Below, one piece after another: positions 14,507 to 64,000 of a stretch of 64,000 bases of DNA. The notes below the pieces were generated by a model. The model was given only the letters and a program-made list of their open reading frames with translations. It did not search any database and was not told the origin of the DNA. The stretch covers positions 250,480,001 through 250,544,000 of the forward strand of contig NC_091472.1 of NCBI RefSeq assembly GCF_036971445.1, read 5' to 3'. Position 1 is the first letter of the stretch. Each line of letters starts with the position of its first letter. Made by a program: the position numbers and the translations under genes. Source of the stretch: Narcine bancroftii (taxonomy: Eukaryota).

Positions 14507-15299
14507 CTAAGAGTTAATATATCAGGATAAATAAATTAGTTTGCTAAAACAGCAATTCTCAGAAGATAGCAAATTAATATACAGATTAAGGGAAATAGTT
14601 TTGGTCATTTACAGTTCTCATTAACTTTAAGAGCAGCCAAAGCCCTTTGAAACTGATACAAGTGTTACCCTTTTAATACTGTTCTAAGTAGTGCTCTTAG
14701 ATTTTGTTGAGGTTGGCAACATTTTCCTGTGACGGAATGTTTTCAGTCGAGGGTAGATTGCTGATGAGCTGAACTGGAGGAAGGTCAATGAGGATAAAGA
14801 AGTTCTGATTTGAGAACTGATATATTTTTGTTGTGATTGATAACATCATTGAAGTTACAATGTTAAAATTGGAAGTGTCGACAGGACCGTGGAGTTGTAC
14901 TGAGGTCAGTCGTGTTACTGCAGTTAGCACAATTCCATTGAGAATGATTGGGTTACTTAAGCAGATGTAGCAATGCTGAGGCCAATAAAGAAATGGGAAG
15001 GTTTGTAGGGAGTTGGCAATAGTGTTAGGAGAATATTACTGGAGATTGTCAGTGAATTATCAAACTGAAGATTGGTGGAGTCCTGTTGATGGTAAAGCTT
15101 ATTGAAAATGCCAAGCTGGTACTGACAATGATATGAAACTGGAAAATATCACTTAAGGTTTGTAGAGTTCAAGTTATAATAGATAAAAATAAAATATACG
15201 GGTGAGGTTGTCCCCCACACTGCTGGAGTTAGACGATCGTCACTGAGGGAAGGGGGCTAGAGATGACAGCCTGTCGCTGGGGCAAGCCAACTCGACCTG

Positions 15300-15720
15300 A
15301 AAGTGACAGCACCTCAGTGGTGAGACCGCAGCTGGAGTTGGCACACTGAGGTGGGTGAAACTACAGTGAGGCTAGTCCCTGGAGCGAGGGGAGGAGGTCG
15401 TGTCGCTGGACCCGGTGGGCTGTTCCCGAGCTGCTGGATCGCGCATGCCCCAAGCGCGGTCAGCTCCTTCGCCTGCCCGTGGGCAGTTGAACCTCGCGCG
15501 GCGTCTCCCGGGCAACGCCGCCGGCCCAACCACGAGCCTCTGCGCGGAATGTTGCCTCTTCCGGTTTCCGCTGCTGCCCCGCGCAACCGCCGACGTGCCA
15601 GGTAAAGCTCTGTGCGTTGACTGGGCCCTGCGTTCCGTGGACCCCCCCCCATTGCGAATCGGACGGCTCCGGCTGTTTCATGGCCTTCTCTTTCCATCTG
15701 CAAGCTTTCTGTTCCACTTG
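15300..15720. promoter_or_regulatory. CpG-island bidirectional promoter shared by ANKAR (-) and the nucleotidyltransferase gene (+)
   Basis: Sharp local rise in GC and CpG between two divergent genes. RFX X-box-like GTCTCCCGGGCAAC at 15503-15516, ETS CTTCCGG near 15557, NRF1-like GCGCATGC near 15441, and a plus-strand donor CAG|GTAAAG at 15601/15602. Confidence 0.75.
15545..15601 (+). other. Probable non-coding first exon of the nucleotidyltransferase gene (5' boundary approximate)
   Basis: Donor CCAG|GTAAAG inside the CpG island; matching acceptor tctcttccggcag| at 16110-16111, just before the ATG. Confidence 0.5.
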
Positions 15721-16128
15721 CGGCCAGTCTTGAATAGAAAGCCGCCACGCCGATTAAACGCTCATCTGCATTTTAGGAAAGGCTTGGTCTGACTGGGTCA
15801 CCTGGGACTTCGGATAGGAATTCGCCAGCCAGTGTCAGCTCTTTGCAGCTTGTCCACACCACCCCTTGGTCCTGGGGTGTCACCAGAACCGGGTCAATTC
15901 TCGCACAGCTCCAGTACGTGCGCCAAGTGTTGGAGGAGGAATGGGAAGGGGGTTCTCGTGCATTTTATTATTGAGATGAGTAGCAAAAAGAAACTTTATC
16001 GAATAAAATCCTCGAACTTCAATGGGAAATAGCTTCAAAAAATAGTGGTGATATGTTAAAAAAAAATTGGTGATAGCACGTAAGCTCTGTGTTGTTGATC
16101 TCTTCCGGCAGGATACACTGCAGATACC

Positions 16129-16320
16129 ATGAAAGCTCTTATTCTAGCCGCCGGCTACGGCACAAGGTTGAACCGTGATCTACAGAGTGACGACAGCGGA
16201 GATTTCAAGCATCTCCTTGGCATCCCGAAGCCCCTTCTCCCAGTAGGGCATCAGCCACTTATAAGTCATTGGCTGTCAACGATAAGCAAGATCAACTCTA
16301 TTGATACAGTTTATGTCGTT
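16129..16320 (+). CDS. Sugar-1-phosphate nucleotidyltransferase (NTP_transferase family), coding exon 1 of 8
   Basis: accATG Kozak context; MKALILAAGYGTRL...GIPKPLLPVG signature; donor GTT|gtacgt, phase 0. Confidence 0.92.
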
Positions 16321-17741
16321 GTACGTTGATATATTGATTTTTTCCCCCCGAAAAAGAGACCTGTTTGAACGATCACAGCTATAATTATGACAAGGAATAA
16401 TTTCATCCTGTGCAGAAGACATAAAACTTGGAAATGCAGTAAACTTCAAGGAATATAATAATATAATGATATGGGCAGATAGATGGTTTATTGCAAAAAA
16501 AGGGTACATTAATACTTTGGTAAAAGCATAAGTAGAGACTGTTTGAACAGATGGCTACAATTTTAGGTGACGCAAACAGGAAGCCTGTGTGCACTGAAAG
16601 GCTGCTAAAAATGTGGATTTGGCTCTATAATTAAGTGGAATAGAGCCAAAATTAAAGTTTATACAAAATATGAAAAACACAACTTAGGCCTCAGTTGGAA
16701 TACATTTCCATGCTGGATATCAGATTTTTTTTTTAAAAAAGGACGTCAAGGAAGGATGAAAAATAAAGGGATTTTTATCCTTTAAGTAGATAAAGCTGAA
16801 AGAAGTTTTGATGCTGATTTTAAAAACAATTCTTTATGAATTCTAATGAAGATAACACAGTAAATAACAGATTTCATAGTCATATACAGATTTAAGGTGT
16901 CAGTAAAAGAAGCAGAGGTGACAAAAACAAATTGATGTTATGATTTGTTATAATCTCTAGGTGTTGGAAGCAGATTTAGTAGCTTCCCAAAGTGAAGTGG
17001 AAAGTCAACTCAACCAGAAAAAAAAGAGATGAAGTGAGTGGGATAAATTAGCTCCAAATTGACCAATGAGCCAACTGCCTTACTGGGTTTAAGTTGGAAC
17101 TTTCTGAAAGCCATTATGAAATTATTTTCCTAATTTCTATATTTCAAATTGGTATGAAAACATGGTTATTTGACCTGTTTACAAAATCATTTTGCCCTTA
17201 GGAAATTTATTTAAACAGAAGGTAGATTTTCAGTGCTTTTTTTTTATTTCAAAAAGGCACGTCTTTTTAAAAGTAAAATCAAAGACTTCCACATTGCCTG
17301 CCAAGGTGATGTATTATTTGAAGGTATCAGCCAAAGAAATTGTTGATCAAAAATACCAGGGTCCAAATCAGTACTAGAGATATTAAAAAAATTAAACACA
17401 TTTGATCTTTTTTAAAACCACAAATTGTTCATTGCATGAATTTCAGCACAGAATTGGAAATAGATGGTAATTTTAAATTATAGATGGGAATAATGAGGAA
17501 GTAATTGATTTATTTTCCTCATGCTCCATTTGCATATTCCAAATGCCAAGTCATCATTTTAATTCCCAGTTTAGTTCGTCGTTTATCATGGGTCAATTAT
17601 CTGAATATTATGGAGAAATCATGCTTGAAAATTGAATTTATTTTCAGTATTTTTACATTTATATTTGGGGTCAAATGAAACTTTAATTCCTATAGCCTTA
17701 TTGATTAATGCAAATATGCTAATTGCTAATGATCTTTGCAG

Positions 17742-17831
17742 ACAAATGATCTCTATTATGCAAAATTTGAAGATTGGGCAAAGGAGTTTCAAAATGTTAA
17801 AGTCTTAAATGATGGTACAAGAAGTAACGAG
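17742..17831 (+). CDS. Nucleotidyltransferase coding exon 2
   Basis: ttgcag| TNDLYYAKFEDWAKEFQNVKVLNDGTRSNE |gtgggt; 90 nt, phase 0-0. Confidence 0.88.
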
Positions 17832-18067
17832 GTGGGTATTCTGTTATATCCAGGATCTTCAATCAATGATTTGGGGCTATTGATCTTCAAAAACATTGGA
17901 TAACCAATGAAATTATATACACTTTTTGGATGAAATTAAACCTCAAATCGATTATTATTTTACTTTAATTCTTTTCCAAAAAGTAAGAGAAATACTTGTT
18001 CAGAAAATGAGTATTTATCAGCAATGATGGTGATGATTCATTTATGAATGATTGGTGAATTAAATTA

Positions 18068-18486
18068 CAGTACAACTCTGATTATCCAAAATTAGACTAT
18101 CCAAAATTCTCAGTTATCCAAAGTTTTTTGGACCCAGAAGTGACGTCCTTTTTAGCTCTGAAATGTTTTTTTTTGGATAATTTAGGATTTCATAAAAATC
18201 AGAAATCCTCATTTTGCCTCTGAAAATTTTTGGATAAATGAGGATATCCGAAATAAACAGAAATCCTCATTTATTTGAGTTTTTTTGTGTTGGATTTATC
18301 TTATTTTGTTCAGGTTATTTTTTTGGCGAGAATTAAACATTATTTCATACTTAAAAAGCCTTCCTATGATGTTTAAAGACTGTTACAAGTGATTTGCTGT
18401 TTTAAAAAAATGTCCAGTTAGCCGAAAATATTGTTTATTCGAAATGGGCCCAATCCCAATCATTTTGGATCATCGGAGTTGTACTG
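18068..18486. mobile_element. Tigger/pogo-like MITE
   Basis: TIRs CAGTACAACTCTGATTATCCAAAA / TTTTGGATCATCGGAGTTGTACTG flanked by TA on both sides; internal palindromic repeats. Confidence 0.8.
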
Positions 18487-18559
18487 TATTAGTTTCCAAA
18501 TGTTCTTCCCTTTTACATATAGATAGTGCTTGTATAGAACATTAGAAAGTCGTAACATT

Positions 18560-18740
18560 TAAAAATTTATATTTAGACATACAGCACGATAACAAGCCCT
18601 ACTGGCCACGAGCCTGTGCCGCCCAAATACCGCAATTAACCTACAACCCCCATACGTTTTGAAGGATGGGAGGAAACCCATGCAAAAACTCATAACTAAC
18701 ACTACTGCATTTAAACCCAGATCACTGGCACCAGTGCCAC
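18560..18740 (-). mobile_element. tRNA-derived V-SINE (HE1-like) fragment
   Basis: Homologous to 40678-40920 (gggaggaaac core, aattaacctac, tttagacatacagcac tail). Confidence 0.6.
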
Positions 18741-18779
18741 CCTTATCTATGTTTAGATTAGGTTAGGTTATAATTAAGG

Positions 18780-19760
18780 TTCAAAGTTCAGATTTATTGT
18801 GAGAGCTCATACATATCATCCCATACAACCCTGAGATTCTTTTTTCCTGTGGGCCAGGCAGAATTTCTACTAATAGTAGTGAAAAAAATTGAACGTTGAG
18901 TGAGTGGGGAGAGGGGGAAAAAGGGGAGAAAATGACACTGTGTATATTCAAGAGGTAAATGTTTGTGTGTATTTTGGTCAGTATGGTTCGTAGTGTGAAA
19001 AAAAAAATTAAAAAAAAGAAAGATGGATATAAAAAAAAGAGAAAAGTAAACAAAGAAACAAATGTGAACAAACTGTTCAATACAGAAAAAAATATTCAGT
19101 TATAAATATTGTGCAAAGTAAGAGTCCTTAAATGAGCTTCTGATTGAGTATGTTGTGGCTGAGTCTGATGATGGAGGGGTAGCAACTGTTCCTGAACCTG
19201 ATAGTATGAGCCTTATGGCACCTACACTTCTTTCCTGATGGCAGCACTGAGAACAGAGCATCTCCTGGGTGGTATGGATCCTTGATGATCGGCGCTAGTG
19301 TCTGACGGCAGCATTCCATGTAGACGTTCCCAATGGTGGGGAGATTTTTGCCTGTGATATACTGGGCTGTGTCCACTATTTTTTTGCAGGTCTCAGGTAT
19401 TGGTTCCTCCATACCAGGCAGTGATGCAGCCAGTCAGCACACTTTCCACTACACATTTGTAGAAGTTTACCCTTTTTTCAAAAGTCATACCAAATCTCTG
19501 CAAACTCCTAAGAAAGTAGAGGTGCTGATGTGCTTTCTTCACAATTTCATTTGTGTGATGGGTCCAGGAAAGGTCCTCCAAGATTGACTCCCAGGAATTT
19601 AAATTTGCTCAGCTTCTTTACCTCGAATCCCCCAATGATCACTGGATCGTACAACTCTGGTTTCCCTTCCTAAACCAGCTCCTTGGTTTTGGTGACATTG
19701 AGTGGGAGGTTGTTGTTAGTTCACCATTCAGCTAAGTTTTCAATCTCCCTCCTGTATACT
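18780..19760 (-). mobile_element. Rex1/Babar-like LINE, 3' portion
   Basis: EDLSWTHH..KKAHQHLYFLR..ESVLTGCITAWYG..HPGDALFSVLPSGK..RFRNSCYP; homologous to 27030-28070. Confidence 0.8.
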
Positions 19761-20490
19761 GTATGTATTGAGGTTGAACCTCAGGTTCATACTTGATGAA
19801 CTTGAGCTGATTCAAAATGCTGTAACTTCCTATGATGGTCAGTAAATTCATGCATACAAAATATGGCTTTGGCTCCTCATGCTTATTGCATCATTTCCAG
19901 AAGATCACAATTGATTTGCTACTTCATTGACACTTTTCAGCACTAATCCCATTCCGCTTGATATCGAAAAATAATTTCTTTGGTCTTAAACATGCAATAA
20001 CAAAATACTTAATAAAAATATAAAATAATAAAGTATTGAATAACTGAGTTACCTTGGCCTTCCGAAGACTCACTGCCCTTCAAGTCGTTACTTCTCAGTT
20101 CTTGACCTGAAAGGCCATCTCCTTGATATAAGACAGGATCCTTATTCTAAACACTCAAACCAGAGGAGTATAGACTGATTCCACCTGACCAAATGTGGTA
20201 ATTATGAACATGGAAAGTATATTTTTGATTGGAGATTAACATTGTAATAAAAGTAACATCCAATTCATAAAGGAATTTTGCAAAACTCCATTCTGCAAGG
20301 AAGCTTTTCTTGAAATGCCAAAGAAATAAATAAAAGGATTGTCCCTATCTTTATATTATTTTAATTTATTAACTTGTAAGTACTGTATTTAACACTGACT
20401 AAAATGTTGTTACTATATTCATCTTTAAATTTACAACTTTAATGAACAGTTATCTTGCCTTTTTTTTACACAAGTTTCTTCTCTTCATAG

Positions 20491-20570
20491 GAACGTCTGG
20501 GTGCTATTGCTTGTCTTCAGCTTGCCATTACTCAATTTGACATCAATGATCATGTATTGATTCTAGGCGG
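20491..20570 (+). CDS. Nucleotidyltransferase coding exon 3
   Basis: cttcatag| ERLGAIACLQLAITQFDINDHVLILGG |gtaagc; 80 nt, phase 0-2. Confidence 0.88.
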
Positions 20571-20676
20571 GTAAGCAACAATACAGAAGTGAAGAGCTAT
20601 TGAATAATTTAAATCAATGCAAATTACTTAAAATATGGAATATTTAACATTCTTTAATAACACACTTTTGAGACTA

Positions 20677-20934
20677 CAGTAAACCCCCTATCATCTGGAA
20701 TTCAAGCAGCCAGCAGCTTCAAAGAACTGGCAAAAAAATCCCCACAAAATAAATAGGTAAAAAAATTGAAAGTTTAAAATTGGCACCTTCACCCCTCCTC
20801 TCCATTCAGCCCCCCCCCCCCCACCAACAGTCAGTTCACAAAACCCTCGCAAGACGCAATCTTAAACAACTGCAAATTCACTTACCAGCATCTACCAACC
20901 CCTATAGGTGCCGGTTAATGGGGGTTTTTACTAG
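20677..20934. mobile_element. Tigger-like MITE (same family as 58017-58238)
   Basis: TIR-like cagtaaaccccctatcatctgg / ccggttaatggggggtttttactag; internal sequence shared with 58017-58238. Confidence 0.65.
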
Positions 20935-22524
20935 GCATTGAAAGTTAAAATAAATTCTGTAGCTTTAATTATTCTGTAGCATTGGCTAATAATAATAGTA
21001 CCCTACGATAAATAATTCAAAGAACAAAATAAGTTAGTCATCATTTTGGTAGGAGGGAAAATAATTCACACTTGAGGCTGGAACCCTTCAAGAGAGAATG
21101 CAGAGGGGAGATGGTCAGTATAAAGAGAACAGAGTGGGAGGGTTGGATGAGGGTTAGGAGATTGGTGAACCAGGGAGAGTTGAGTCATGGGAGGCAGATG
21201 CCTAACAAAGGGGAGGTGAGAGAAAAATGGGAATAATGGGGTGGACAAATACAAGTCATCTCACGTGGAATTGGAGTCAGCTAGAGGTCAGTGATAAATG
21301 GAGATAAAGGCTACTAGTGGTGGAATCTGATGAACTGAACATCTGTAGGTTGAGTGTATTCTGAGGGAGAAGATATACATGCACTTAAATGGACACCAGC
21401 TGATTCGGGATAGTCATGACTTAGAAATCTGAGTTTGAAGATGGGACCAACAATGTTGAGAGGGCAGAGCTGTAGACATATATATGGATTTCAGCAAAGC
21501 ATTCAAAGTTTCACACGGAATGAGAGGAATAGAGCAGGTAACTGCACAGCCTTTTGCCCAGAATAGGGAAAATCAGCAATGAGAGGACACAGGTTTCAGG
21601 TTGGTTGGAGACTGGGGGTGGGGGGGGGGGAGATATAATAGAAACCAATATAGATATATATTACACACACACACTATATATGGATAGGATAGTTTGAGAT
21701 AATAAAGGGGTAACAGGCAGGTGCAGAATTTTGGTCATCATGGGAGAGTTGGGTCAAAGGGGGTTGTTTCCACATTGAGTGAATGTGACTTACCAGATTC
21801 AACATCAATCTCTTTTCTTTCCAACCCTTCCAGCCATCTCTAATCCCATCCTGAATAATTGTTTTCCTTAAGCTTCTTTCTTCATCAGACACTTATCAAT
21901 CATCTAACCCTCCCTTCACCATCTAGCTGTCATCCTTTACCCTTCCTTAGTTCATCAATCTCCTACTGGCCTGTTCAACCTCTCCCACTCTATCCTCATT
22001 ATATTGGCTCTCACCACTCTGCACTCTTAAGTCTTCACAAAACATTGAGCATTCTTTTCCTTCCAATGATGAGGCTCGCCTACCAGAATTCCTTTAGCAG
22101 ATTGTTTATTCCTCCATATTCCAACATCTGCAGTCTCTCATATGTCTTAACTTTTGAAATGATCTGGTTGATCTTTAAATATTATCATTCAAATTTCTAA
22201 ACTCAGAAAGACTAAGTCCACTTAACCTGTGCAAACATTACTTGAAGACAACTTGATTACTATCATTATCAATCTTCCTGTTTTATTATCACATTACTAT
22301 ACATTTTTTGTTTGAATCTACCTCTGAAACAATAGTCCTTTTCACATTGGCAACCTGCTAAACTGGCATGTGAACGACCTTTGTTGAAATACCGGGAGGG
22401 CCATTTGTCTTTTAACCTTAAATATCCAGTATTACAGATCAAAGTGGGGGAGAGCCCAAGCTCCAGTGTTGACATCTTAAGTGACTCATTACGTACACAC
22501 AGGGTAGTGAAATAGTAGCGGGAA

Positions 22525-22672
22525 TAAAGCACATATGCGCACAGTTTATGAAAGAGTGGGGAAAAAAAACATGCACAATTTAATAAGACATATGCGCACA
22601 ATGTATAAAAGTGGGAAAAACATGCACAATTCATGAGATATACCCACGCAATTTATAAAAGAATGTGGGAAA
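22525..22672. repeat. Degenerate ~55-bp tandem repeat, about 2.5 copies
   Basis: Repeated acatatgcgcaca..tataaaagtgggaaaaacatgcacaatt units. Confidence 0.6.
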
Positions 22673-22743
22673 ATCTACTGCAGTGGGCTTCAGACTGTTC
22701 AAAATTGTTCTGGCCTTCATTTTGACTATTTATTTTTCCCCAG

Positions 22744-22859
22744 GGATACATTGTTCTACGAGGACTTCAATCTTTCAGATGTCCTTGCAAAATTTGATGA
22801 GCTGCAGAATATTAACTACGATAACAGTTTGGTTTTGTCATACCTATGCCAAAATGAAG
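22744..22859 (+). CDS. Nucleotidyltransferase coding exon 4
   Basis: ttcccCAG| (G)DTLFYEDFNLSDVLAKFDELQNINYDNSLVLSYLCQNE G|gtcaat; completes the GGD motif; phase 2-1. Confidence 0.85.
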
Positions 22860-22939
22860 GTCAATCCAATAAATTATTACAAATTTTATTTTTTTCTTTG
22901 AACCAATATTTGGGTAAAACTAACACATCATCTTCTTAG

Positions 22940-23040
22940 CAGAAACTGCAAAGTTTGGCATTTTAGAAATAAATGAAAATTTTCAAGTCACTGGATTTAA
23001 AGAAAAACCCAGCTCCACTGAAACAGCATCGCGCAGAGCA
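22940..23040 (+). CDS. Nucleotidyltransferase coding exon 5 (tandem TAG/CAG acceptor; may start at 22943)
   Basis: ETAKFGILEINENFQVTGFKEKPSSTETASRRA with the family's FxEKP motif; donor |gtaaga. Confidence 0.88.
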
Positions 23041-23261
23041 GTAAGATTTTTGGTCTTATATTTATTGGCCATTTCTTCTCTTTAAAAAGTCTATTTGGAA
23101 AAAGTAATTTTAAAAGCATCAGTTCATGCTAGTGCATTCTTGCGGAGCTCATTAACATTTTCATCTTTAATTTCTTTCAGTTAAAACATTTGGCACTTCA
23201 GCACAATATGTCTGGATGAATATTGACTCAAGTTTATCTATTTAAATTTTCTATCTTCCAG

Positions 23262-23330
23262 TGCCCATGCTTTTACATATACTCAAAAAATACAGTTCCA
23301 TTAATTGCAAAATTTCTTCAAGACAAATGG
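23262..23330 (+). CDS. Nucleotidyltransferase coding exon 6
   Basis: cttccag| CPCFYIYSKNTVPLIAKFLQDKW |gtaagt; 69 nt, phase 0-0. Confidence 0.85.
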
Positions 23331-23785
23331 GTAAGTGTTGGGAGTAAATCCATTCTATTAATTTTTAGATCATTTTATAACTGGATAAATATCGGGCAGT
23401 TATCAAGTTGATGAATTAAGTATTAATACATTTTGTGCAAACAGTATTCTATATTGCCTGTAAAAGATTAATTAATACAGTATTTTGAAAACTTTGTATT
23501 TAATATTTTCACTTTCATGTACTCCATTTTCATATAAACAACTCCACAACATGCTTCAAATAGGCAGTAAATCTTTTAAAGTCAATTAGTTAAATGAAAT
23601 ATCTTTTGTTACAATTTAGAAAACTATATTTAAATTGTATGCTCAGATCAAATGTTTGAAATGACCCAAAAGTTCCAATAAACTTTTCCTTTCAATCAAT
23701 TTATCATTTAATAATTTCTTGATAAAATAAGAATTATTTTAGTTGTTTATATAAAATACTTATTTGAAATGTTCTTTTTCAATAG

Positions 23786-23844
23786 AATTCACCCTTGGAA
23801 GAGAGAGATGCACCTGGAAATTTTTTACTTTGGCTCTACTCAAG
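23786..23844 (+). CDS. Nucleotidyltransferase coding exon 7
   Basis: ttcaatag| NSPLEERDAPGNFLLWLYS(R) |gtgaga; 59 nt, phase 0-2. Confidence 0.85.
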
Positions 23845-23914
23845 GTGAGAGTGTCTCAATAAATTATTTTAAAATTTTATGCCATTTTTCTAATTTTTAT
23901 TTTCTATATTGCAG

Positions 23915-24008
23915 GAAACCAGTGTTTGTCTATCACATACGTGGCCGTTTTGATGTTGGGAATCTCCCATCATACATTGAATGTTCCAAATATTTCCAGA
24001 AGTCTTGA
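23915..24008 (+). CDS. Nucleotidyltransferase terminal coding exon
   Basis: attgcag| (R)KPVFVYHIRGRFDVGNLPSYIECSKYFQKS*; contains the family's C-terminal DxG motif. The spliced CDS totals 801 nt (266 aa) with no internal stop. Confidence 0.88.
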
Positions 24009-24279
24009 AACTATAATCTGATTGGAAAGCTGTTAACCATTCCAATGAAGTCTTTAACAAAAAACCTACAATTTCTTTTAACATTTAAAAAATTTACTCA
24101 ATGAAAACAAAGAAAATGAAAACTGTTTGCACCTTCTGTTTTTTTCTTTAAATTTGAATGTTCTTATTGTAGTATTAAGCAAATACAAATGAACTTTCAT
24201 GGACTTCTAATTTTAGTTGAAAATATGCATTTATTTCAGCTGAAAGAATTTCAAGCTTATATCAACAACAATGATGAGA

Positions 24280-26265
24280 ATCAACTAGACAGGGTTGTCC
24301 TTTGTCACCAGCTGTTTGCATTGGTTATTGAACTTTGGCACAGATGATTAGGCAAGATAATTTGATAACAGGTATTAGGGTGAATTCTAATGAATATAAG
24401 ATAAATTTGTTTGCAGATGACGTGTTGATATATTTAACTCATCCTTTACGGTCTTTGGAGACCTTACATGAACATTTGCAACAGTATAGAGCGTTATCTG
24501 GTTATAAGGTAAATTGGGAGAAGAGTGAAATTATGCCTTTGGTGGAGATGGATTATTCGTCATGTAGACAGATTGTGAAGTTAGATATTTAGGTATTATT
24601 ATTGATAATAATTATGATTATTTACCATTATTGACTAGAATTAAAAATGATTTAAATAGGTGGAAGAATCTACCAATAATGTTGGTAGGAAGGGTGAATT
24701 GTATCAAAATGAATATTTTTCCTTGAATTCAGTATTTGTTTCAATCTGTTCCATGTAAGATACCTTATAAATTAATTCTTTGATAAGAAATTTTTTGTGG
24801 AAAGACAAAATGGCAAGTTTCATTACAAAAATTAACATGGAAATATGCATTGGGAGGTTTACAACTACCTAATTTTCAACATTATTATGAATCATCTCAA
24901 TTAAAATTTATAAATAGAATGTTTCAAGAGGATAGCTCTTCGGTTTGGGGTATTAAATTTATCTCAGATTGGTGAAAAGAGGATGGACCAATTTATTTAT
25001 TGATGGAATTCTCAGTTAAGTAGTTACAGGTTACCAGTATTGAAACATTTGCTTGAGTCATGGATAAATAAGAATGAGTTTTTAGGTACAGAAGGTAAAA
25101 TCTAGGTTAAGATGCCTTTATTTCAAAATAAGCTTTTACCATTTACGATCAATAATCAAAGTTATGAACAAAATTGAAGTTATGGGAACAAAATGGAATG
25201 AAATTGGTAGAAGATTGTTATGAGGCAGGACATTTTATTTTCTTTCAAAGAATGAGAGAGAAATATGAGTACCTTTGAGTACTCTTTTTACTTATTATCA
25301 GGTTAAAGTTTTACTATTAAATAATTTTGGGCATACTTTGTGACTTCCTAGAAGATCTAAATTTGAGAGTTTAATTATTGATGGTGCTAGGAAGGGTTTT
25401 ATATCAAATATGTATAATTTATTGCAGGTTAAAACCCCAAAGCCAGATAAGACTAGAGTGAAATGGGAGAAAGACTTGGGAATATCTATCTCCCCGGAAG
25501 ATTGGATATCGGTATGTGAAGATAGTATGACTAAAATTGTGAATGTGAGGTTTAGATTGGTTCATTATAATTTTAGTCATCAATTATATTTAAATACTTA
25601 GAAATTGAAATAAATTTAAATATGTCACTTCAGATTTATGCTTTAGATGTCATAAGGAAGTAGGAACCTTCTTACACTCAGTTTGGCTATGTGACACAAT
25701 TAAACCTTTTTGGAATAAAATTAAAGAATTCTTGCAAGTTATGTTTAAATTTAAATTCCATTTGACCCTATGATATTTTTACTGGGTAACATTAAATCAT
25801 TGTGTTTAGAGTTGAATTGGATAAATCTCAAATGCCTTTTTGAGGTTGGTCTTAGCAGTAGCTAGGAAATGTCTTGCAGTTACGTGGAAGAATGAGATTA
25901 AATTGAATATTCAACCATGGCATATGGAAATGAGGTCATGTATTCCCTTAGAGAAGATAACATAATTTACAAAACAATTTTTTTTGTTAAGGTTTGGAGC
26001 CCATACATGGATTGGATGTGTTCTAACTGTTAAAATATTATCCCATACATGGGTGGTGTGGTCCAAAACCATGACACATATCCGAATGTATTGCTTTAAT
26101 TATTCTCCTCCATCTTTCTTTTCTTTCGGAGTAGGTTAGTGGGGGGGTTGGGTGGGAGGGATAGGGATGGGGGGGGGGGAAGGAGGGTTTTATGGAATAA
26201 AATATATCACATTGTATTTTTTATGTATTATCTATTATTAATTATAAATAAAATTTTTAAAAAAA
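24280..26265 (+). mobile_element. Degenerate 5'-truncated L1/Tx1-like LINE
   Basis: RQGCPLSP, LFADDVLIYL and SGYKVNWEKSEI motifs, a C-terminal zinc-knuckle remnant, G-rich 3' UTR and A-tail; many stops. Confidence 0.85.
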
Positions 26266-45941: not shown

Positions 45942-46096
45942 TTGGATCTCCCGGAGTTTGCGCTGAAGATGGCTGCATGCGCGACGGAAGGCTTGTTTCT
46001 TCTCTGGACAGGACGGCTTTGTAAGGTGAGCCTGGTGGGCAGCTCGCCTTCCGTCGCGCATGCAGCCATCTTCAGCGCAAACTCCGGGAGATCCAA
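45942..46096. repeat. Perfect 51-bp inverted repeat with a 53-nt loop
   Basis: 45942-45992 is the exact reverse complement of 46046-46096. Confidence 0.95.
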
Positions 46097-48166
46097 AATG
46101 AGTGGTGGACTAGCCTCGCCAAACGAACACAGCTCAGCGCGGACATTGGCGACTTCAGGGGTTTCTACGAGGCTCTAAAGGCTGTGTACGGCCCCTCACC
46201 CCAAGTCCAAAGCCCGCTGCGCAGCTCAGACGGCAAAGTCCTCCTCAGCGACAAGATCTCCATCCTCAACCGATGGTCAGAACACTTCCAATCTCTTTTC
46301 AGTACCAACCGCTCAGTCCAAGATTCCGCCCTGCTCCAGCTCCCTCAACAGCCCCTAAGGCTAGAGCTGGATGAGGTTCCCACCCTGGATGAGACATATA
46401 AGGCAATCGAACAACTGAAAAGTGGCAAAGCAGCAGGTATGGATGGAATCCCCCCAGAAGTCTGGAAGGCTGGCGGCAAAACTCTGCATGCCAAACTGCA
46501 TGAGTTTTTCAAGCTTTGTTGGGACCAAGGTAAACTGCCTCAGGATCTTCGTGATGCCACCATCATCACCCTGTACAAAAACAAAGGCGAGAAATCAGAC
46601 TGCTCAAACTACAGGGGAATCACGCAGGCAAAATCTTCGCTAGGATTCTACTAAATAGAATAATACCTAGTGTCGCTGAGAATATTCTCCCAGAATCACA
46701 GTGCGGCTTTCGCGCAAACAGAGGAACCACTGACATGGTCTTTGCCCTCAGACAGCTCCAAGAAAAGTGCAGAGAACAAAACAAAGGACTCTACATCACC
46801 TTTGTTGACCTCACCAAAGCCTTCGACACCGTGAGCAGGAAAGGGCTTTGGCAAATACTAGAGCGCATCGGATGTCCCCCAAAGTTCCTCAACATGATTA
46901 TCCAACTGCACGAAAACCAACAAGGTCGGGTCAGATACAGCAATGAGCTCTCTGAACCCTTCTCCATTAACAATGGCGTGAAGCAAGGCTGTGTTCTCGC
47001 ACCAACCCTCTTTTCAATCTTCTTCAGCATGATGCTGAACCAAGCCATGAAAGACCCCAACAATGAAGACGCTGTTTACATCCGGTACCGCACGGATGGC
47101 AGTCTCTTCAATCTGAGGCGCCTGCAAGCTCACACCAAGACACAAGAGAAACTTGTCCGTGAACTACTCTTTGCAGATGATGCCGCTTTAGTTGCCCATT
47201 CAGAGCCAGCTCTTCAGCGCTTGACGTCCTGCTTTGCGGAAACTGCCAAAATGTTTGGCCTGGAAGTCAGCCTGAAGAAAACTGAGGTCCTCCATCAGCC
47301 AGCTCCCCACCATGACTACCAGCCCCCCCACATCTCCATCGGGCACACAAAACTCAAAACGGTCAACCAGTTTACCTATCTCGGCTGCACCATTTCATCA
47401 GATGCAAGGATCGACAATGAGATAGACAACAGACTCGCCAAGGCAAATAGCGCCTTTGGAAGACTACACAAAAGAGTCTGGAAAAACAACCAACTGAAAA
47501 ACCTCACAAAGATAAGCGTATACAGAGCCGTTGTCATACCCACACTCCTGTTCGGCTCCGAATCATGGGTCCTCTACCGGCACCACCTACGGCTCCTAGA
47601 ACGCTTCCACCAGCGTTGTCTCCGCTCCATCCTCAACATCCATTGGAGCGCTCACACCCCTAACGTCGAGGTACTCGAGATGGCAGAGGTCGACAGCATC
47701 GAGTCCACGCTGCTGAAGATCCAGCTGCGCTGGATGGGTCACGTCTCCAGAATGGAGGACCATCGCCTTCCCAAGATCGTATTATATGGCGAGCTCTCCA
47801 CTGGCCACCGTGACAGAGGTGCACCAAAGAAAAGGTACAAGGACTGCCTAAAGAAATCTCTTGGTGCCTGCCACATTGACCACCGCCAGTGGGCTGATAA
47901 CGCCTCAAACCGTGCATCTTGGCGCCTCACAGTTTGGCGGGCAGCAGCCTCCTTTGAAGAAGACCGCAGAGCCCACCTCACTGACAAAAGGCAAAGGAGG
48001 AAAAACCCAACACCCAACCCCAACCAACCAATTTTCCCTTGCAACCGCTGCAATCGTGTCTGCCTGTCCCGCATCGGACTGGTCAGCCACAAACGAGCCT
48101 GCAGCTGACGTGGACTTTTTTACCCCCTCCATAAATCTTCGTCCGCGAAGCCAAGCCAAAGAAAAA
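45942..48166 (+). mobile_element. Young RTE-clade LINE, 5'-truncated and 5'-inverted, with one frameshift
   Basis: ORFs 46184-46654 and 46735-48108 encode the RT (VDLTKAFDTV, GVKQGCVLAP, LFADD, YLG) and a C-terminal CxxC..H finger. A small deletion near 46624 shifts the frame. 12-bp TSD AAGGTAAATTGG at 45934-45945 and 48167-48178. Confidence 0.95.
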
Positions 48167-51942: not shown

Positions 51943-54900
51943 TGTACTGACAATAACCACACCAGCAGAGTGTGTACAAGACAGCTTTAATAAACTAATA
52001 TGTACACTAAGAGGTCTTGTCTCTCTGCAAGACGAACCTGGAAGGCTAGAATGTAGCTCTGGACTGCTTTATATACAAGGTCACTGGGATGACCCCTGGT
52101 GACCTAGTGGTGTAATTACATATCACCACATTCACCCCCCCTTAAAAAAATTGTTATCCCCCCGCCACCCCCCCCCTCCTTCCCTTGTTTGTAAGTTCAT
52201 AAGTCCAAAATTTTTCATGGTTTCTGTTGCCTTCTGGACCTCCTTGGTAGTGGTATAGGGGTGGGGAGTGCAGTCTGCCTTTCGGCCTTTCTCGGTGGAG
52301 GTGTGGGAGTGGGAAGTACTAAATGGCCATGTGGCTGTGTGGGCTGGGGATCCTCTTGATTGGGATTAGGTCCTGCCATCAAGTCTAGGGTGGTGATATT
52401 TTGTGGGGTGGGTGTACCCAGGGTCCTGATTTCTGGGGTGGGTGGTATAGTCCTCTGGGGTGACTTGATGGACGACTGTTCTAGTGACTGCTGCTGTACT
52501 CCTTGTTGATCCATAGACATCTGAGTTTCCTCCACATTGTTCACACAACCGACCGGCGCGAGATCCCTGGTGGCCACCGAGTCTTCTCTTCCATCTGGAA
52601 ATGTGATGAAGGCGTACTGAGGGTTCGGGTACCTCAACTCCACTTGATCCACCAGCGGGTCGGCTTTGTTGGATCTGCAGTGCTTCCGGAGGAGAACAGG
52701 TCCCGGTGTCATCATCCATTTAGGCAGCACTGTGCCTGTCATGGCTTTCCTTGTGAAAGAAAAGATATGTTCATGTGTGGTCATGTTAGTGGGAGTACAC
52801 AACAAAGAACGTATAGAGTGTAGGGCTTCTGGCAACATTTCTTGCCATATAGTAATAGGCAGGTCTTTTGCTTTTAAGGTCAAGAGGACCGTTTTCCAGA
52901 TAGTTGCATTTTCCCTTTCGACTTGTCCATTCCCCCTGGGATTTTAACTTGTAGTGTGGCTGGTAGCAATCCCTCTCTCGTGCAGATACTGCTGTACTTC
53001 TGCACTCATGAGTGTAGCACCCCTGACTGTGTGTATGTAGTTCAGGTACCCAAATATGCTGAAGATGGGTTGGAGGCATTTTATAACAGTGGCTGCTGAT
53101 ACATCAGAACACGGGATTGCGAAGGGGAAATGGGAATATTCATCTATTAAGTTTAGGAAATAGACATTTCTATTATTGGACGGGAGCAGGCCTTTAAAAT
53201 CGAGGCTGAGGTGCTCAAAAGGTTTGGTAGCTTTTATCAGGGTGGCTTTGTCTGGCTGGTAAAACTGCAGTTTGCATTCCGCACAGATGGGGAAGTTCTT
53301 GTTCACTGACCTCACTTCCTCTACCGAAAATGGGAGGTTTTGGGTTTTAATGGAGTGAAACAGTCTAGTGACCCCCGGGTGGCCCAGCTCATTGTGTAAG
53401 GTCTGCAACTGGGACGTGTGATTAAGGATGGCACAAGTGGCCCTGGACAGCACGTCCGGGGACTCGTTGAGTCTCCCGGGGCGGTATAGAATGCCGTAGT
53501 TAAATGTAGACAATTCTATCTGCCAGCGCAGGATTTTGTCATTCTTAATTCTCCCGCTGTTCTGGTTATCGAACATAAAAGCCACAGACCATTGGTCCGT
53601 GACGAGGGTGAAGTGTTTGCACGCCAGATAATGTCGCCAGTGCCTTACTGCTTCCATAATGGCTAGGGCCTCCTTCTCTACTGCTGAGTGTCTTACCTCT
53701 GACCCCTGTAGAGTTCGCGAGTAAAAGGCCACCGGTCATCCATCTTGGTTTAGGGTGGGTGCCAGAGCCACATCGGTTGCATCCGTTTCTACTTGAAATG
53801 AGATTGACTCATCTATGGACTGCATGGTAGCTTTAGCGATATGGTCCCTAATGTCCTTTAATGCTCTGGTAGCTGCTGGGCACAGTGGGAAAACTGAAGC
53901 TTTTATAAGTGGGCAGGCCCTGTCAGCGTAGTTGGGGACCCATTGGGCATAGTAAGCGAACAGTCCCAAACACCTTTTTAGTGCTTTCAGCGTGTGTGGC
54001 ACTGGGAGGTCTAGGAGATGGCACATACGGGCTGGGTCTGGGCTGATTTCCCCATTCTGGACTATGTAACCCAGGACTGGCAACTTCCTGGTACTAGAGA
54101 CGCATTTGTCTCTGTTGTATGTTAGGTTCTTTCCTCGGCTGCCTGGAAGAAGCATTTTAAATTCATGTCATGATCCTCCTGAGTGTGGCCACAGATTGTC
54201 ACTTTGTCTAAGTAGGGGAACAACGCTTTCAGTTGGAACTCATCTACTATTCAGTCCATTTCTCTCTGAAACAGGTGACACCAAAGGGGAGTCGCAGAAA
54301 TTGAGACAGCCTGCCATCTGCCTCAAATGCCGTGTAAATGCGATCGTTGTTTCTCATGGGCAGTTGGTGGTATGCTGCCTTCAGGTCTATGGTGGAGAAC
54401 ACCTTATAGTGTGCAATGTTGTTGATCATGTCTGCTATGCGTGGCAGGGAGTAGGCATCTAGTTGTGTAAATTTGTTGATTGGCTGTAATCCACTACCAT
54501 GCGCAGTTTTTCTCCTGACTTTACTACAACCACCTGGGCTCTCCAGGGGCTGGTGTTCTGCTCTACGATGCCCTCCTGTAGTAGCCTGCAAACCTCTAAT
54601 GAAGGCTCTGTCCCTCGGGCTGTACCTCCTGCTCTTTGTGGCTATTGGTGTGCATTCTGGGGTCAGGTGTGTGAACAGCGGAGGGGGTTCTATGTTCAGG
54701 ACAGACAGGCTGCAGTGTTGTTGCTTCATAAGGCGTAGTGGGGGGTGAGGCCCATTGTGCACTATTGTAATGCTTTCTATCTGGCCCTGGAGTGGTCGGG
54801 AATCCTGCACATACGTGGCGATCGGGAGCACGACTTGTGGAGATCCTTCCACCCACGCTTGTAGAGGCCCCTTTCTGATTGGTTCGGGGTTTAGGGTTGG

Positions 54901-61149: not shown

Positions 61150-62640
61150 CTGCAGAAGGGGAGATAGACAGGAGTTAGAGGGATGCTGTCATCTAGGAGG
61201 CAGGAGGAAGGTAAGTGGGTGACAGTCAGGAGAGGGAAAGGAAACCAAAAGTCCAGGGCACCCATGTGGCCATTCCCCTCAATAGCACGTATATAGTTTT
61301 GGATACTGTTGAGGGGGGAATAACCTATCAGGAACAAGCTAAAGGTCAGGTCTCTGGTACAGAGTCTGCTCCTGTGGCTCAAAAGGGAAGGGAAGAGAAG
61401 AGACAAGCTGTAGTGATATAGGGGATTTCATGGTTAGGGGGACAGATAAGAAATTCTGTGGAAGAGGTTGAGTATCCTGGGTATTATGTTGCCTTCCTGG
61501 TGCCAGGTTCCAAGATATCTCATCAAGTTCACGGCATTCTGAGAAGGGAGGGTGAGCAGCTAGATGTCATGGTCCATGTAGGGACCAATGATGTGGGTAT
61601 GAAGGGTGAGGAGGTCCTGTATGGAGAATTCAGGGAGTTAGGCACTAGGCTGAAGGACAGGATTTCCAGGGTTGATCTCAGGATTGCTACCTGTGCCATG
61701 TGCTAGAGAGGTTAGAAATAGGAGGATTATACAGCTTAACATGTGGCCAAAGAGATGGTGCAGGAGGGAGGGTTTCAGGTTTCAAGCTCATTGGGCTCTC
61801 TTCCAGGGAAGGTGGGACCTGTTCCAGTGGGACTTGTTCTGATGCACCCGAACTGGAGGGGCACCAATATCCTTGCAGGAAGGTTTGCTTGCGCTAATCC
61901 AGTGGTGGGGAGGGGGAGGCAGTGTTAAACTAGATTTGCAGGGTGCTGGGAACCAGAGTACCAGAGTAGATAAAGGAGTGAATGAGGAAAAAGATGGTGA
62001 AGATTGAAAGTAAGTCAGAGGGTTGTACATGATGGCAATTTTCTCAGGCACATCTATTTCAATGCAAGTATTGTAGCAAAAGCAGATGAGCTTAGAGAAT
62101 GGGTTGGCGTGTGGAATTATGAAATTGTGGCCATTAGTGAAAATTGCTTGAGAGAGGGGCAGGACTGGGAGCTCAATGTTCTGGGCTTCCGTTGCTTCAG
62201 ATGTGATAGAATTGAGGGAATGAAAGGGGGAGAAGTGGCATTGTTCATCTGGGAAAATATCACAGCTCCGCTCAGGCAGAACACATCACAGGGCTCATTT
62301 ACTGAAGCTATATGGGTGGAATTGAAGAATGGGAAATGTATGACCACACTCACAGGGTTGTATTATAGATCTCCCAATAGACAGTGGGAATTGGAGGAGC
62401 AAATCTGTAGAGAGATAGCAGACAGCTGCAGAAAACAAAGTTGTAATAGTCGGAGTTTTTGACTTTCCACATATTCACTGGGACTCCCAAACTGTAAAAG
62501 GGCTGGATGCCTTGGAGTTTTCTAAACCAGTATATAGAGGAACCAACTAGAGAGAGTGCATTACCAAATCTCCTGTAAGGGAACAAGGGAAGACAGGTGA
62601 CAAGTATGTGTAAGGGAATATTTGTGTCCAGTGATTATCA
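61150..62640 (+). mobile_element. Degenerate CR1-like LINE (ORF1 esterase and ORF2 endonuclease region)
   Basis: VVIxGD, VHVGTND and HPNWRG (SGNH/GDSL-like ORF1); YFNA.SI..KADEL..IVAISE..GFRCFRCDR..GGEVAL..YYRSP (APE endonuclease). Confidence 0.8.
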
Positions 62641-62659
62641 TGGCCCATCCCTTTGTGAG

Positions 62660-64000
62660 CGGAGATGAAAACGGTGCCTTTTAGCTCTTCTGCCCTCACA
62701 GAACTTTTCATAGTTGTTGGCACATTGTGCTGAGTCACTGCGAATCGTGGAATCCATGCAGTGTGATTTTTTGCGAGGTCCTCCCAGTCAGCATGGTTGA
62801 CATGGAATGACTGGAGATCACGATTGATTGCGTTTTTGTAGTGAAGACGTGGGTGGCCAACAGTGGGGGTAGCATCTGGTAGCCCACCATAGAGGACATC
62901 TTTGGGCAATCGGCCGTGCTCTATTCGGACAATGTGGCCAGCCTACCGCAGGTGGCGAGCGTGGATGATTGTGTAGCGGTCCATACTTCCAGTCTTCTCC
63001 AGGACTTGGACGTTTGTGATTCTGTTGTGCCATGAGTAGCCTAGGATGGATCTGAGGCAGCAAAAATTGAATGCATTAAGGCAGTGTTCTTGCTTTCTGT
63101 ATGTGACCCAGGATTCACAGCCATAGAGAAGAGTACTCAGCACTCAGGCTTCATAGACTCGGATCTTCAACTTGGTGGAGAGGTGGCAGTTATCCCACAC
63201 GCGAGCACGGAGGCATCCGAAGGTAGTGAATGCTTTTCCCAGGTGTGTGTCCAGTTCTGCGTCGAGTGAGTTCATTGTTGTCATGGTGGAGCCCAAGGAG
63301 CAGAATTTCTCTGTTGTCGAGCACTGACCCATTGATGGTAATTGATGAAGTGTCGTGGGTTTGTTGGCTAAAGATGACTGTCTTGCCCAGGCTGATTTTC
63401 AGACCAAATTCAGAGCAGGCAGATGCAAATGTGTCGCACAACACTTGAAGCTCTGGCTGGGAGTGAGCCACGAAGGCAGCATCATCTGCATAGAGCAGTT
63501 CTTGAAATCATAACTCTTCTGATTTTGGTCTTGGCCCGGAGCCGTAACAGATTAAAAAGTTTTCCGGAGCTCTTTGTGTGCAGGGCTATGCCTGAAGCTT
63601 CTGGAAAGGCACGGCTCAGAAGGACAGAGAAGAAAATGCCAAATAGAACTGGAGCGAGTACGCAGCCCTGTTTTACGCCGCAGCAGATTGGGAACTCTTG
63701 TTCTTGAGGCATCGAATTGGGTAGTGGCCTGCATATTGTTGTGAAACTGGACGATGATGGACAGTACTGTGTCAGGGCAGTCAAGACGTTTTAAGACATG
63801 GAATAGGCCTGAGCGACTAGCATAGTCAAAGATCTTGGTGAGGTCGATGAAGCACACATAGAGGGTTTTGCATTGTTCGATGCATCTCTCTTGCAGTTGG
63901 CAGAAGGTGAAGACCATATCGATAGTTGATCGAGATGATCGAAAGCCACATTGGCTTTCAGGCAGTATTCTGTTGGCGATGGTTTGCAAGCGAATGAGGA
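62660..64000 (-). mobile_element. Older, degenerate RTE LINE of a second family, running off the right edge
   Basis: LPESQCGFRSSRSTIDMVF, FIDLTK, GVKQGCVLAP, YADD, STLLYGCESW and PKDVLYG motifs with frameshifts; clearly diverged from the 46-48 kb RTE. Confidence 0.88.

Follow-up and report, generated by a model that had tools for sequence, protein, structure and literature searches.

A stand-alone nucleotidyltransferase gene of the ray Narcine bancroftii and its possible place in glucuronate salvage beside gkup

Introduction

Which protein carries out the step from glucuronate-1-phosphate to uridine diphosphate (UDP)-glucuronate in animals that possess gkup (glucuronokinase with putative uridyl pyrophosphorylase)? 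This question was raised by a stretch of 64,000 nucleotides from the ray Narcine bancroftii (NC_091472.1, positions 250,480,001 to 250,544,000 of the forward strand; the window), in which the gene at 16129-24008 encodes a stand-alone nucleotidyltransferase. Our analysis suggests, with roughly an even chance of being right, that the ray protein makes UDP-glucuronate from glucuronate-1-phosphate and uridine triphosphate (UTP) as a separate enzyme downstream of gkup. Such an activity, glucuronate-1-phosphate uridylyltransferase, presumably corresponds to EC 2.7.7.44. The functional assignment and the split between intact and degenerate copies in an uncharacterised subfamily are new, while the fold, the reaction class and the annotated gene were known.

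Glucuronokinase was reported in amphibians, fishes and cnidarians, not in mammals (Pieslinger et al., PMC2823444). The gkup proteins of zebrafish and frog were specific glucuronokinases, and standard assays failed to reveal pyrophosphorylase activity in them (Gangl et al., 2014, PMC3938481). Full-length zebrafish gkup produced a trace of UDP-glucuronate in 70 h, none was obtained from either domain alone, and many activation conditions as well as expression in yeast failed to give the activity (PMC3938481). In the same study, BLAST gave no other zebrafish homologue, no homologue with full function was at hand to serve as a control, and the authors considered that an unidentified protein might be required for the second step of gkup (PMC3938481). 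They also proposed that fishes and frogs have a second UDP-glucuronate route, which would account for the leftover cartilage matrix of ugdh (jekyll) mutants (PMC3938481). Their distance tree may already hold stand-alone members of the family described here.

Results

Judged by its sequence, the ray gene encodes a single-domain sugar-1-phosphate nucleotidyltransferase whose predicted catalytic residues are intact. The first-pass annotation of this DNA had claimed the motifs LAAGYGTRL, PKPLLP, GGD, FKEKP and FDVG, and all of them were found in the translation; the predicted catalytic set consists of Arg13, Lys34, Asp122, Glu180-Lys181 and Asp248. Pfam PF00483 was passed with 84.2 bits against a cut-off of 21.2 (residues 2-262). 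The AlphaFold model, made with a 105-row alignment, reached a predicted local distance difference test score of 97 and consisted of a single catalytic domain; as the same annotation had stated, a C-terminal beta-helix was seen neither in the 265-residue model nor by Pfam. The predicted Rossmann-like fold spans the whole chain (Z 26.6 and root-mean-square deviation 2.2 over 231 residues against 3hl3), and the model resembled RmlA, GalU and the catalytic domain of GMPPA/B to much the same degree (Z 25-27, about 20% identity). RmlA and GalU have the same single-domain fold without beta-helix (TM about 0.7) and the same core catalytic motifs. However, they share only about 20% identity with the ray protein, they lie outside the family clade, and the ray protein scored far below their NCBIfam equivalog cut-offs (rmlA 41 of 361 bits, galU 27 of 327), as it did for glgC (36 of 425). 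None of the 22 NCBIfam families compared was near its cut-off (best 51 bits vs 292), and among the PDB sequences searched no solved structure of the subfamily was found (best single-sequence E 9e-6, best profile E 6e-22). The C-terminal GHMP glucuronokinase domain of gkup is absent, with a stop codon ending at 24008 and the spliced contig going on as 3' untranslated region (UTR). Residue roles were transferred from plant VTC1 by motif alignment. In VTC1, pyrophosphate is bound by Arg13 and Lys23, while two aspartates, Asp111 and Asp219, were termed catalytically critical (PMC9168903).

The conservation of these residues was then compared in stand-alone and kinase-fused domains. A profile matched 282 proteins, and 217 full single domains were tallied; isoforms and close kin were included, so the rows are not independent. 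In this tally, Arg13 and Asp223 were present in 118/118 stand-alone rows and Asp248 in 113/118, and the intact kinase fusions of algae and protists had each of the three in 28/28. In contrast, animal-type gkup rows had Arg13 in 5/41 and Asp223 and Asp248 in 0/41 each. Asn93 was also mostly lost from the gkup N-domain, and all four residues are kept by the ray protein. The equivalents of Lys34, Asp122 and EKP were retained in 40-41 of the 41 gkup rows, as in the stand-alone rows. The ray itself has a gkup gene, on another contig (C17) and with other intron positions than the stand-alone gene, in which VAGHGTLL and GFQLIGQ replace the intact motifs; the first-pass annotation was therefore correct in stating that gkup lacks the arginine of the nucleotide loop. 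This gene was found with a frog query, a distant protist kinase query having missed it, and its spliced contigs came from the same four runs as those of the stand-alone gene. Between fish and sponge the gkup N-domain is 60% identical, and the stand-alone protein is 50% identical between ray and sponge. Strong conservation without catalytic residues suggests that the gkup N-domain has a constrained non-catalytic job. The loss of Arg13, Asp223 and Asp248 in animal gkup fits the near-zero pyrophosphorylase activity published for the zebrafish enzyme, and this degenerate pattern offers an explanation for the negative result of Gangl et al. (PMC3938481). In the Mucorales-type gkup (P0329, P0338 and P0322), the N-domain is far more eroded than the animal one; Mucoromycota also have a stand-alone cluster.

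The kinship of the two copies was examined in maximum-likelihood trees (LG+G4, no mixture model) of 70 and 72 hand-chosen rows, besides a quick tree of 105 rows; human GMPPA/B were left out. In the 72-row tree, the family was split from the RmlA, GalU, GlgC, GlmU, RfbF and mannose-1-phosphate-guanylyltransferase-like rows with a support of 100/99. With the same support, stand-alone proteins, intact kinase fusions and animal-type gkup domains formed one eukaryotic clade, and the animal-type gkup domains formed a clade within it; the branching order inside the eukaryotic clade was otherwise poorly resolved. The paralogy with the gkup N-domain, which the first-pass annotation had drawn from shared segments, was thus upheld. 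Animal gkup N-domains were about 31-35% identical to the ray protein (E 1e-26 to 1e-41), and the closest intact glucuronokinase fusions were 39-43% identical, one red-algal-type fusion being at 33%. The zebrafish GKUP N-domain (PMC3938481) shares with the ray protein the insert after the Gly loop and the NDG..RLGA, EKP and SR motifs, which places them in the same subfamily, whereas the kinase domain of GKUP is absent in the ray protein. Intact domains fused to a glucuronokinase-type kinase occurred in red algae, a chlorarachniophyte and unnamed protist-like records, and glucuronokinase was the commonest fusion partner among eukaryotic records. In an unnamed eukaryote-like protein (P0111), GalE is fused in front of the domain. 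Annotated proteins of two starfish species combine the stand-alone domain with an aldo-keto reductase, which may reflect a real fusion or merged neighbours.

The family is large (185 representatives at a threshold of E 1e-30, rising to 1314 at 1e-10), and the ray protein is the orthologue of the uncharacterised zgc:136439. Its fish relatives are named zgc:136439 or bear automatic names, for example glucose-1-phosphate adenylyltransferase. Stand-alone members were found in sharks, rays, a chimaera, sturgeons, teleosts, caecilians and frogs. Among other named eukaryotes they occurred in starfish, the annelid Capitella, Oikopleura, sponges, the choanoflagellate Monosiga and the jakobid Andalucia; an Atlas cluster of relatives was mostly from Mucoromycota, and there are prokaryotic members too. 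The gene is hence not the orphan vertebrate gene that it had been called, nor is the system simply retained in fishes, since amphibians and invertebrates carry relatives as well. Both the stand-alone protein and gkup were recovered from three named teleost species. No amniote name appeared in sets of 41 and 37 matches or in the 120 listed of 389 kinase-fusion matches, the search being word-indexed and not able to show absence. Of five weak matches to phage records, two bear an RmlA-type annotation and the other three none. In the ESM Atlas, a 51-member cluster labelled viral, with the phylum known for one member, had a feature score of 0.97 against the ray protein.

Gene context in one prokaryotic branch also points toward uronate salvage. 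In the branch nearest to the eukaryotic clade (79 metagenome loci), a GHMP sugar kinase was found in 46 loci, a count inflated by a scan query that came from a kinase fusion; 32 loci had a nucleotide-sugar dehydrogenase resembling UDP-glucose dehydrogenase, and 29 had an epimerase. When the loci were grouped into 36 clusters at 70% identity, these counts became 20/36, 8/36 and 7/36, respectively. The same set of genes lies in the polysaccharide cluster of the Lactococcus garvieae plasmid CP066001.1 (L143:5737-10025), where an epimerase, a GHMP kinase, the family nucleotidyltransferase and a nucleotide-sugar dehydrogenase follow one another. The GHMP kinase of this plasmid is annotated as two hypothetical proteins. 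The operon epimerase, which may be a UDP-glucuronate 4-epimerase, matched 5u4q (E 2e-121), labelled by its depositors as a deoxythymidine diphosphate (dTDP)-glucose dehydratase. These neighbours, together with the glucuronokinase fusions, agree with the salvage context that had been proposed for the gene.

An Arg two residues before the last Asp (Arg246 in the ray) was accompanied by the kinase in 41/50 loci and the Trp form in 0/86, a comparison within 159 loci that concerns one branch and is not independent. At the equivalent position of RmlA, the W224H variant is said to accept glucuronate-1-phosphate. The sugar tolerance of this variant was broadened (PMC9415975). A role of Arg246 as a carboxylate clamp was considered and rejected: the residue tracks the kinase operons, yet GalU has Arg there too. 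The idea that prokaryotic members replace GalU was likewise rejected as unsupported, because in 121 genomes sampled from one carrier phylum, GalU was as rare where the family is present (1/6) as where it is absent (22/115). The other prokaryotic branch comprised 80 loci, mostly of Omnitrophota and Verrucomicrobiota; for 50 of these loci the carrier genomes were examined, and GalU and a PF01704 enzyme were each found in only 3/50, which had spoken for the replacement. Most of the 80 loci lie among ptsI/metK/ahcY-like genes. In Omnitrophota-type genomes the family belongs to a conserved gene neighbourhood that also comprises ptsI-, metK-, ahcY-, yvcK- and pfk-like genes; in two Chlamydiae-labelled records the family domain is fused to MetK.

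The ray gene lies on the plus strand and has eight coding exons, all with GT-AG introns, which give an open frame of 265 residues identical to the already annotated RefSeq XP_069790822.1. The eight exons and the uninterrupted 266-residue frame of the first-pass annotation are present, the latter as an isoform (XP_069790820/821.1) in which a tandem acceptor at 22940 adds one residue. A non-coding first exon (5' UTR, 15463..15601) is defined by spliced contigs that start at 15463 and by a splice over 15602-16111, seen in 4/4 runs. Coding exon 1 (16112..16320, coding from the ATG at 16129 to 16320) carries the Gly-rich loop with Arg13, the family insert and Lys34. It is followed by exon 2 (17742..17831) with the NDG..NE segment and Asn93, and by exon 3 (20491..20570) with the RLGA motif and the start of GGD. 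Exon 4 (22744..22859) contains Asp122, the first predicted Mg-site Asp, whose role was assigned by motif match to VTC1 Asp111. Exon 5 (22943..23040) has the EKP motif and the tandem acceptor, exon 6 (23262..23330) the CPCFY strand, and exon 7 (23786..23844) the DAPG motif with Asp223. Exon 8 (23915..24008) ends the frame with RFDVG, including Arg246 and Asp248, and the stop codon. The 3' UTR extends from 24009 to at least 25420, since one spliced contig of 2366 nt (run X3) spans 23913-25420.

Spliced contigs linked all seven coding introns and the 5' UTR intron in 4/4 runs, which supports the spliced model; the four runs belong to one study and are probably RNA, though none is recorded as such. 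The exon 4-5 joint among those listed corresponds to the 265-residue form. When the genome was searched with the ray protein at E 0.001, this gene was the sole matching locus. The 5' UTR exon also contains an ATG of its own, from which an out-of-frame reading frame of 39 codons (15549-16178, plus strand, spliced) begins that stops 50 bases past the main start codon and is a possible translational control element.

Downstream, a minus-strand gene with an asparagine-synthase domain ends at about 29.7 kb, tail-to-tail with the nucleotidyltransferase gene; we take it to be ASNSD1. Upstream, a minus-strand gene, presumably ANKAR, stands head-to-head with the nucleotidyltransferase gene; its ankyrin-like exons were located some 36 kb ahead of the window. 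Genes of the types expected for the neighbours named beforehand were accordingly seen. In a genome-wide ankyrin search, this upstream neighbour was not among the 150 of 711 candidates that were scored. GC content was 0.71 and the CpG observed/expected ratio 1.09 at 15401-15600, and the CpG-rich stretch at 15000-15601 may be a promoter that the gene shares with its minus-strand ankyrin-repeat neighbour. A separate contig has one end at 15341 and extends past 15000. Further along the window, long frames at 46025-48105, 52218-54641 and 62550-63998 resembled, by eye, LINE-type reverse transcriptase and Gypsy-like retroelement pieces.

Discussion

We infer the sugar and the base of the ray enzyme from its context only. 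In the proposed pathway, the gkup kinase would supply glucuronate-1-phosphate. From what is known of the family, the nucleoside triphosphate would bind at the Gly-rich loop (Arg13, Lys34), Mg2+ would be held by Asp122 and Asp248, and the sugar phosphate would lie at Glu180-Lys181. A single Mg-dependent in-line displacement would then transfer the nucleotide monophosphate to the sugar-1-phosphate and release pyrophosphate. Historically, an early eukaryote may have had both stand-alone and kinase-fused copies; the fused copy of animals and fungi would have lost its catalytic residues while remaining under constraint, possibly in the role of a ligand sensor, and the chemistry would have been kept by the stand-alone copy. 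Plant UDP-sugar pyrophosphorylase (USP) is larger and comes from a different family, presumably PF01704, for which the ray protein gave no match at E 0.01. In plants GlcAK and USP make up the route (PMC2823444, PMC3938481), and the USP step is the job proposed here for the ray protein.

Several observations weigh against this assignment. A literature search, with most subscription papers and supplements outside its scope, found neither a functional study of zgc:136439 nor a measured activity of any family member. Several crustaceans have gkup with no named stand-alone copy among the matches, in a search not built to show absence. The domain has also been fused to GalE, GalK, MetK and, in the two starfish, aldo-keto reductase. 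In the nearest prokaryotic branch, the operon kinase is not a glucuronokinase but a galactokinase-like protein that falls short of the GalK cut-offs; in the other branch glucuronokinase was found in 0/80 loci and galactokinase in 1/80. From the opposite direction, 903 genomes of three phyla were sampled for bacterial glucuronokinase homologues; 58 matched, and 51 loci had 1.5 kb flanks. A GalU-type neighbour was present in 23 of them, a member of the ray-protein family in 3 and neither in 25. Bacterial glucuronokinase homologues often travel with a nucleotidyltransferase, not specifically with this family. An adjacent GalU-type gene was often seen in the Planctomycetota and Acidobacteriota samples. 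Furthermore, the Arg at position 246 is shared by the glucose-specific GalU and is not diagnostic for an acidic sugar.

Some of these points would suit a salvage enzyme that is not particularly linked to gkup and that activates a different sugar phosphate, or several of them (glucose-, galactose-, galacturonate- or xylose-1-phosphate), which we regard as possible, if doubtful. The Trp-form prokaryotic members (86/159 loci) are never beside an operon-type kinase and sit in housekeeping clusters, the GalE and GalK fusions exist, and the best profile matches among solved structures were glucose-1-phosphate enzymes. The split between stand-alone and fused copies also predates animals, which left time enough for a change of substrate. 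However, eukaryotic members mostly carry the Arg form of the kinase operons, which is documented in one branch, their commonest fusion partner is glucuronokinase, and intact and degenerate copies are complementary. Alternatively, gkup itself could carry out the two steps in vivo after correct activation, in which case the stand-alone protein would be dispensable for the pathway or non-enzymatic. The trace of UDP-glucuronate from full-length zebrafish gkup only (PMC3938481) speaks for this and against a separate enzyme, as do the retained equivalents of Lys34, Asp122 and EKP. Nevertheless, the loop Arg and both C-terminal Asp are gone in nearly all gkup rows, the attempts at activation and the yeast expression failed (PMC3938481), and the stand-alone protein retains every motif, so that we hold it very improbable.

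A different arrangement keeps the chemistry of the separate enzyme and adds a physical partner. The first-pass annotation had suggested a complex with gkup in the manner of GMPPB and GMPPA, in which the ray protein would be bound to the gkup N-domain as an active/inactive pair for channelling or feedback. The parallel is real in that GMPPB/GMPPA also combine an intact paralogue with a conserved degenerate one on the same catalytic fold (7d72, Z 25.5), whereas the degenerate member of the gkup system is part of a kinase fusion. A docking role would be possible for an N-domain that is conserved from fish to sponge without catalytic residues, both genes were spliced in the same runs, and Gangl et al. 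had proposed an unidentified partner protein (PMC3938481). However, each of the three interfaces of human GMPPA-GMPPB is held together mainly or solely by the left-handed beta-helix (PMC9168903). Because neither the ray protein nor gkup has this helix, a complex of that type becomes less likely; the constraint on the gkup N-domain is equally explained by a cis sensor role on its own kinase. The suggestion was thereby weakened, and such a pair now seems distinctly unlikely. A broader version, a split system in animals below amniotes and some fungi where the gkup kinase with a dead, UDP-glucuronate-sensing domain docks a zgc:136439-type enzyme without beta-helix, is in our opinion unlikely.

The separate enzyme downstream of gkup gives a concrete candidate for the second step that Gangl et al. 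could not get working (PMC3938481). If the assignment is true, the glucuronate salvage pathway of animals would be completed, and automatic names such as adenosine diphosphate (ADP)-glucose, dTDP-glucose or guanosine diphosphate (GDP)-mannose enzyme would be corrected across many genomes. It would also bear on the reading of zebrafish models of human UGDH disease. Within the specialist field of carbohydrate metabolism, a gap stated a decade ago has become directly testable.

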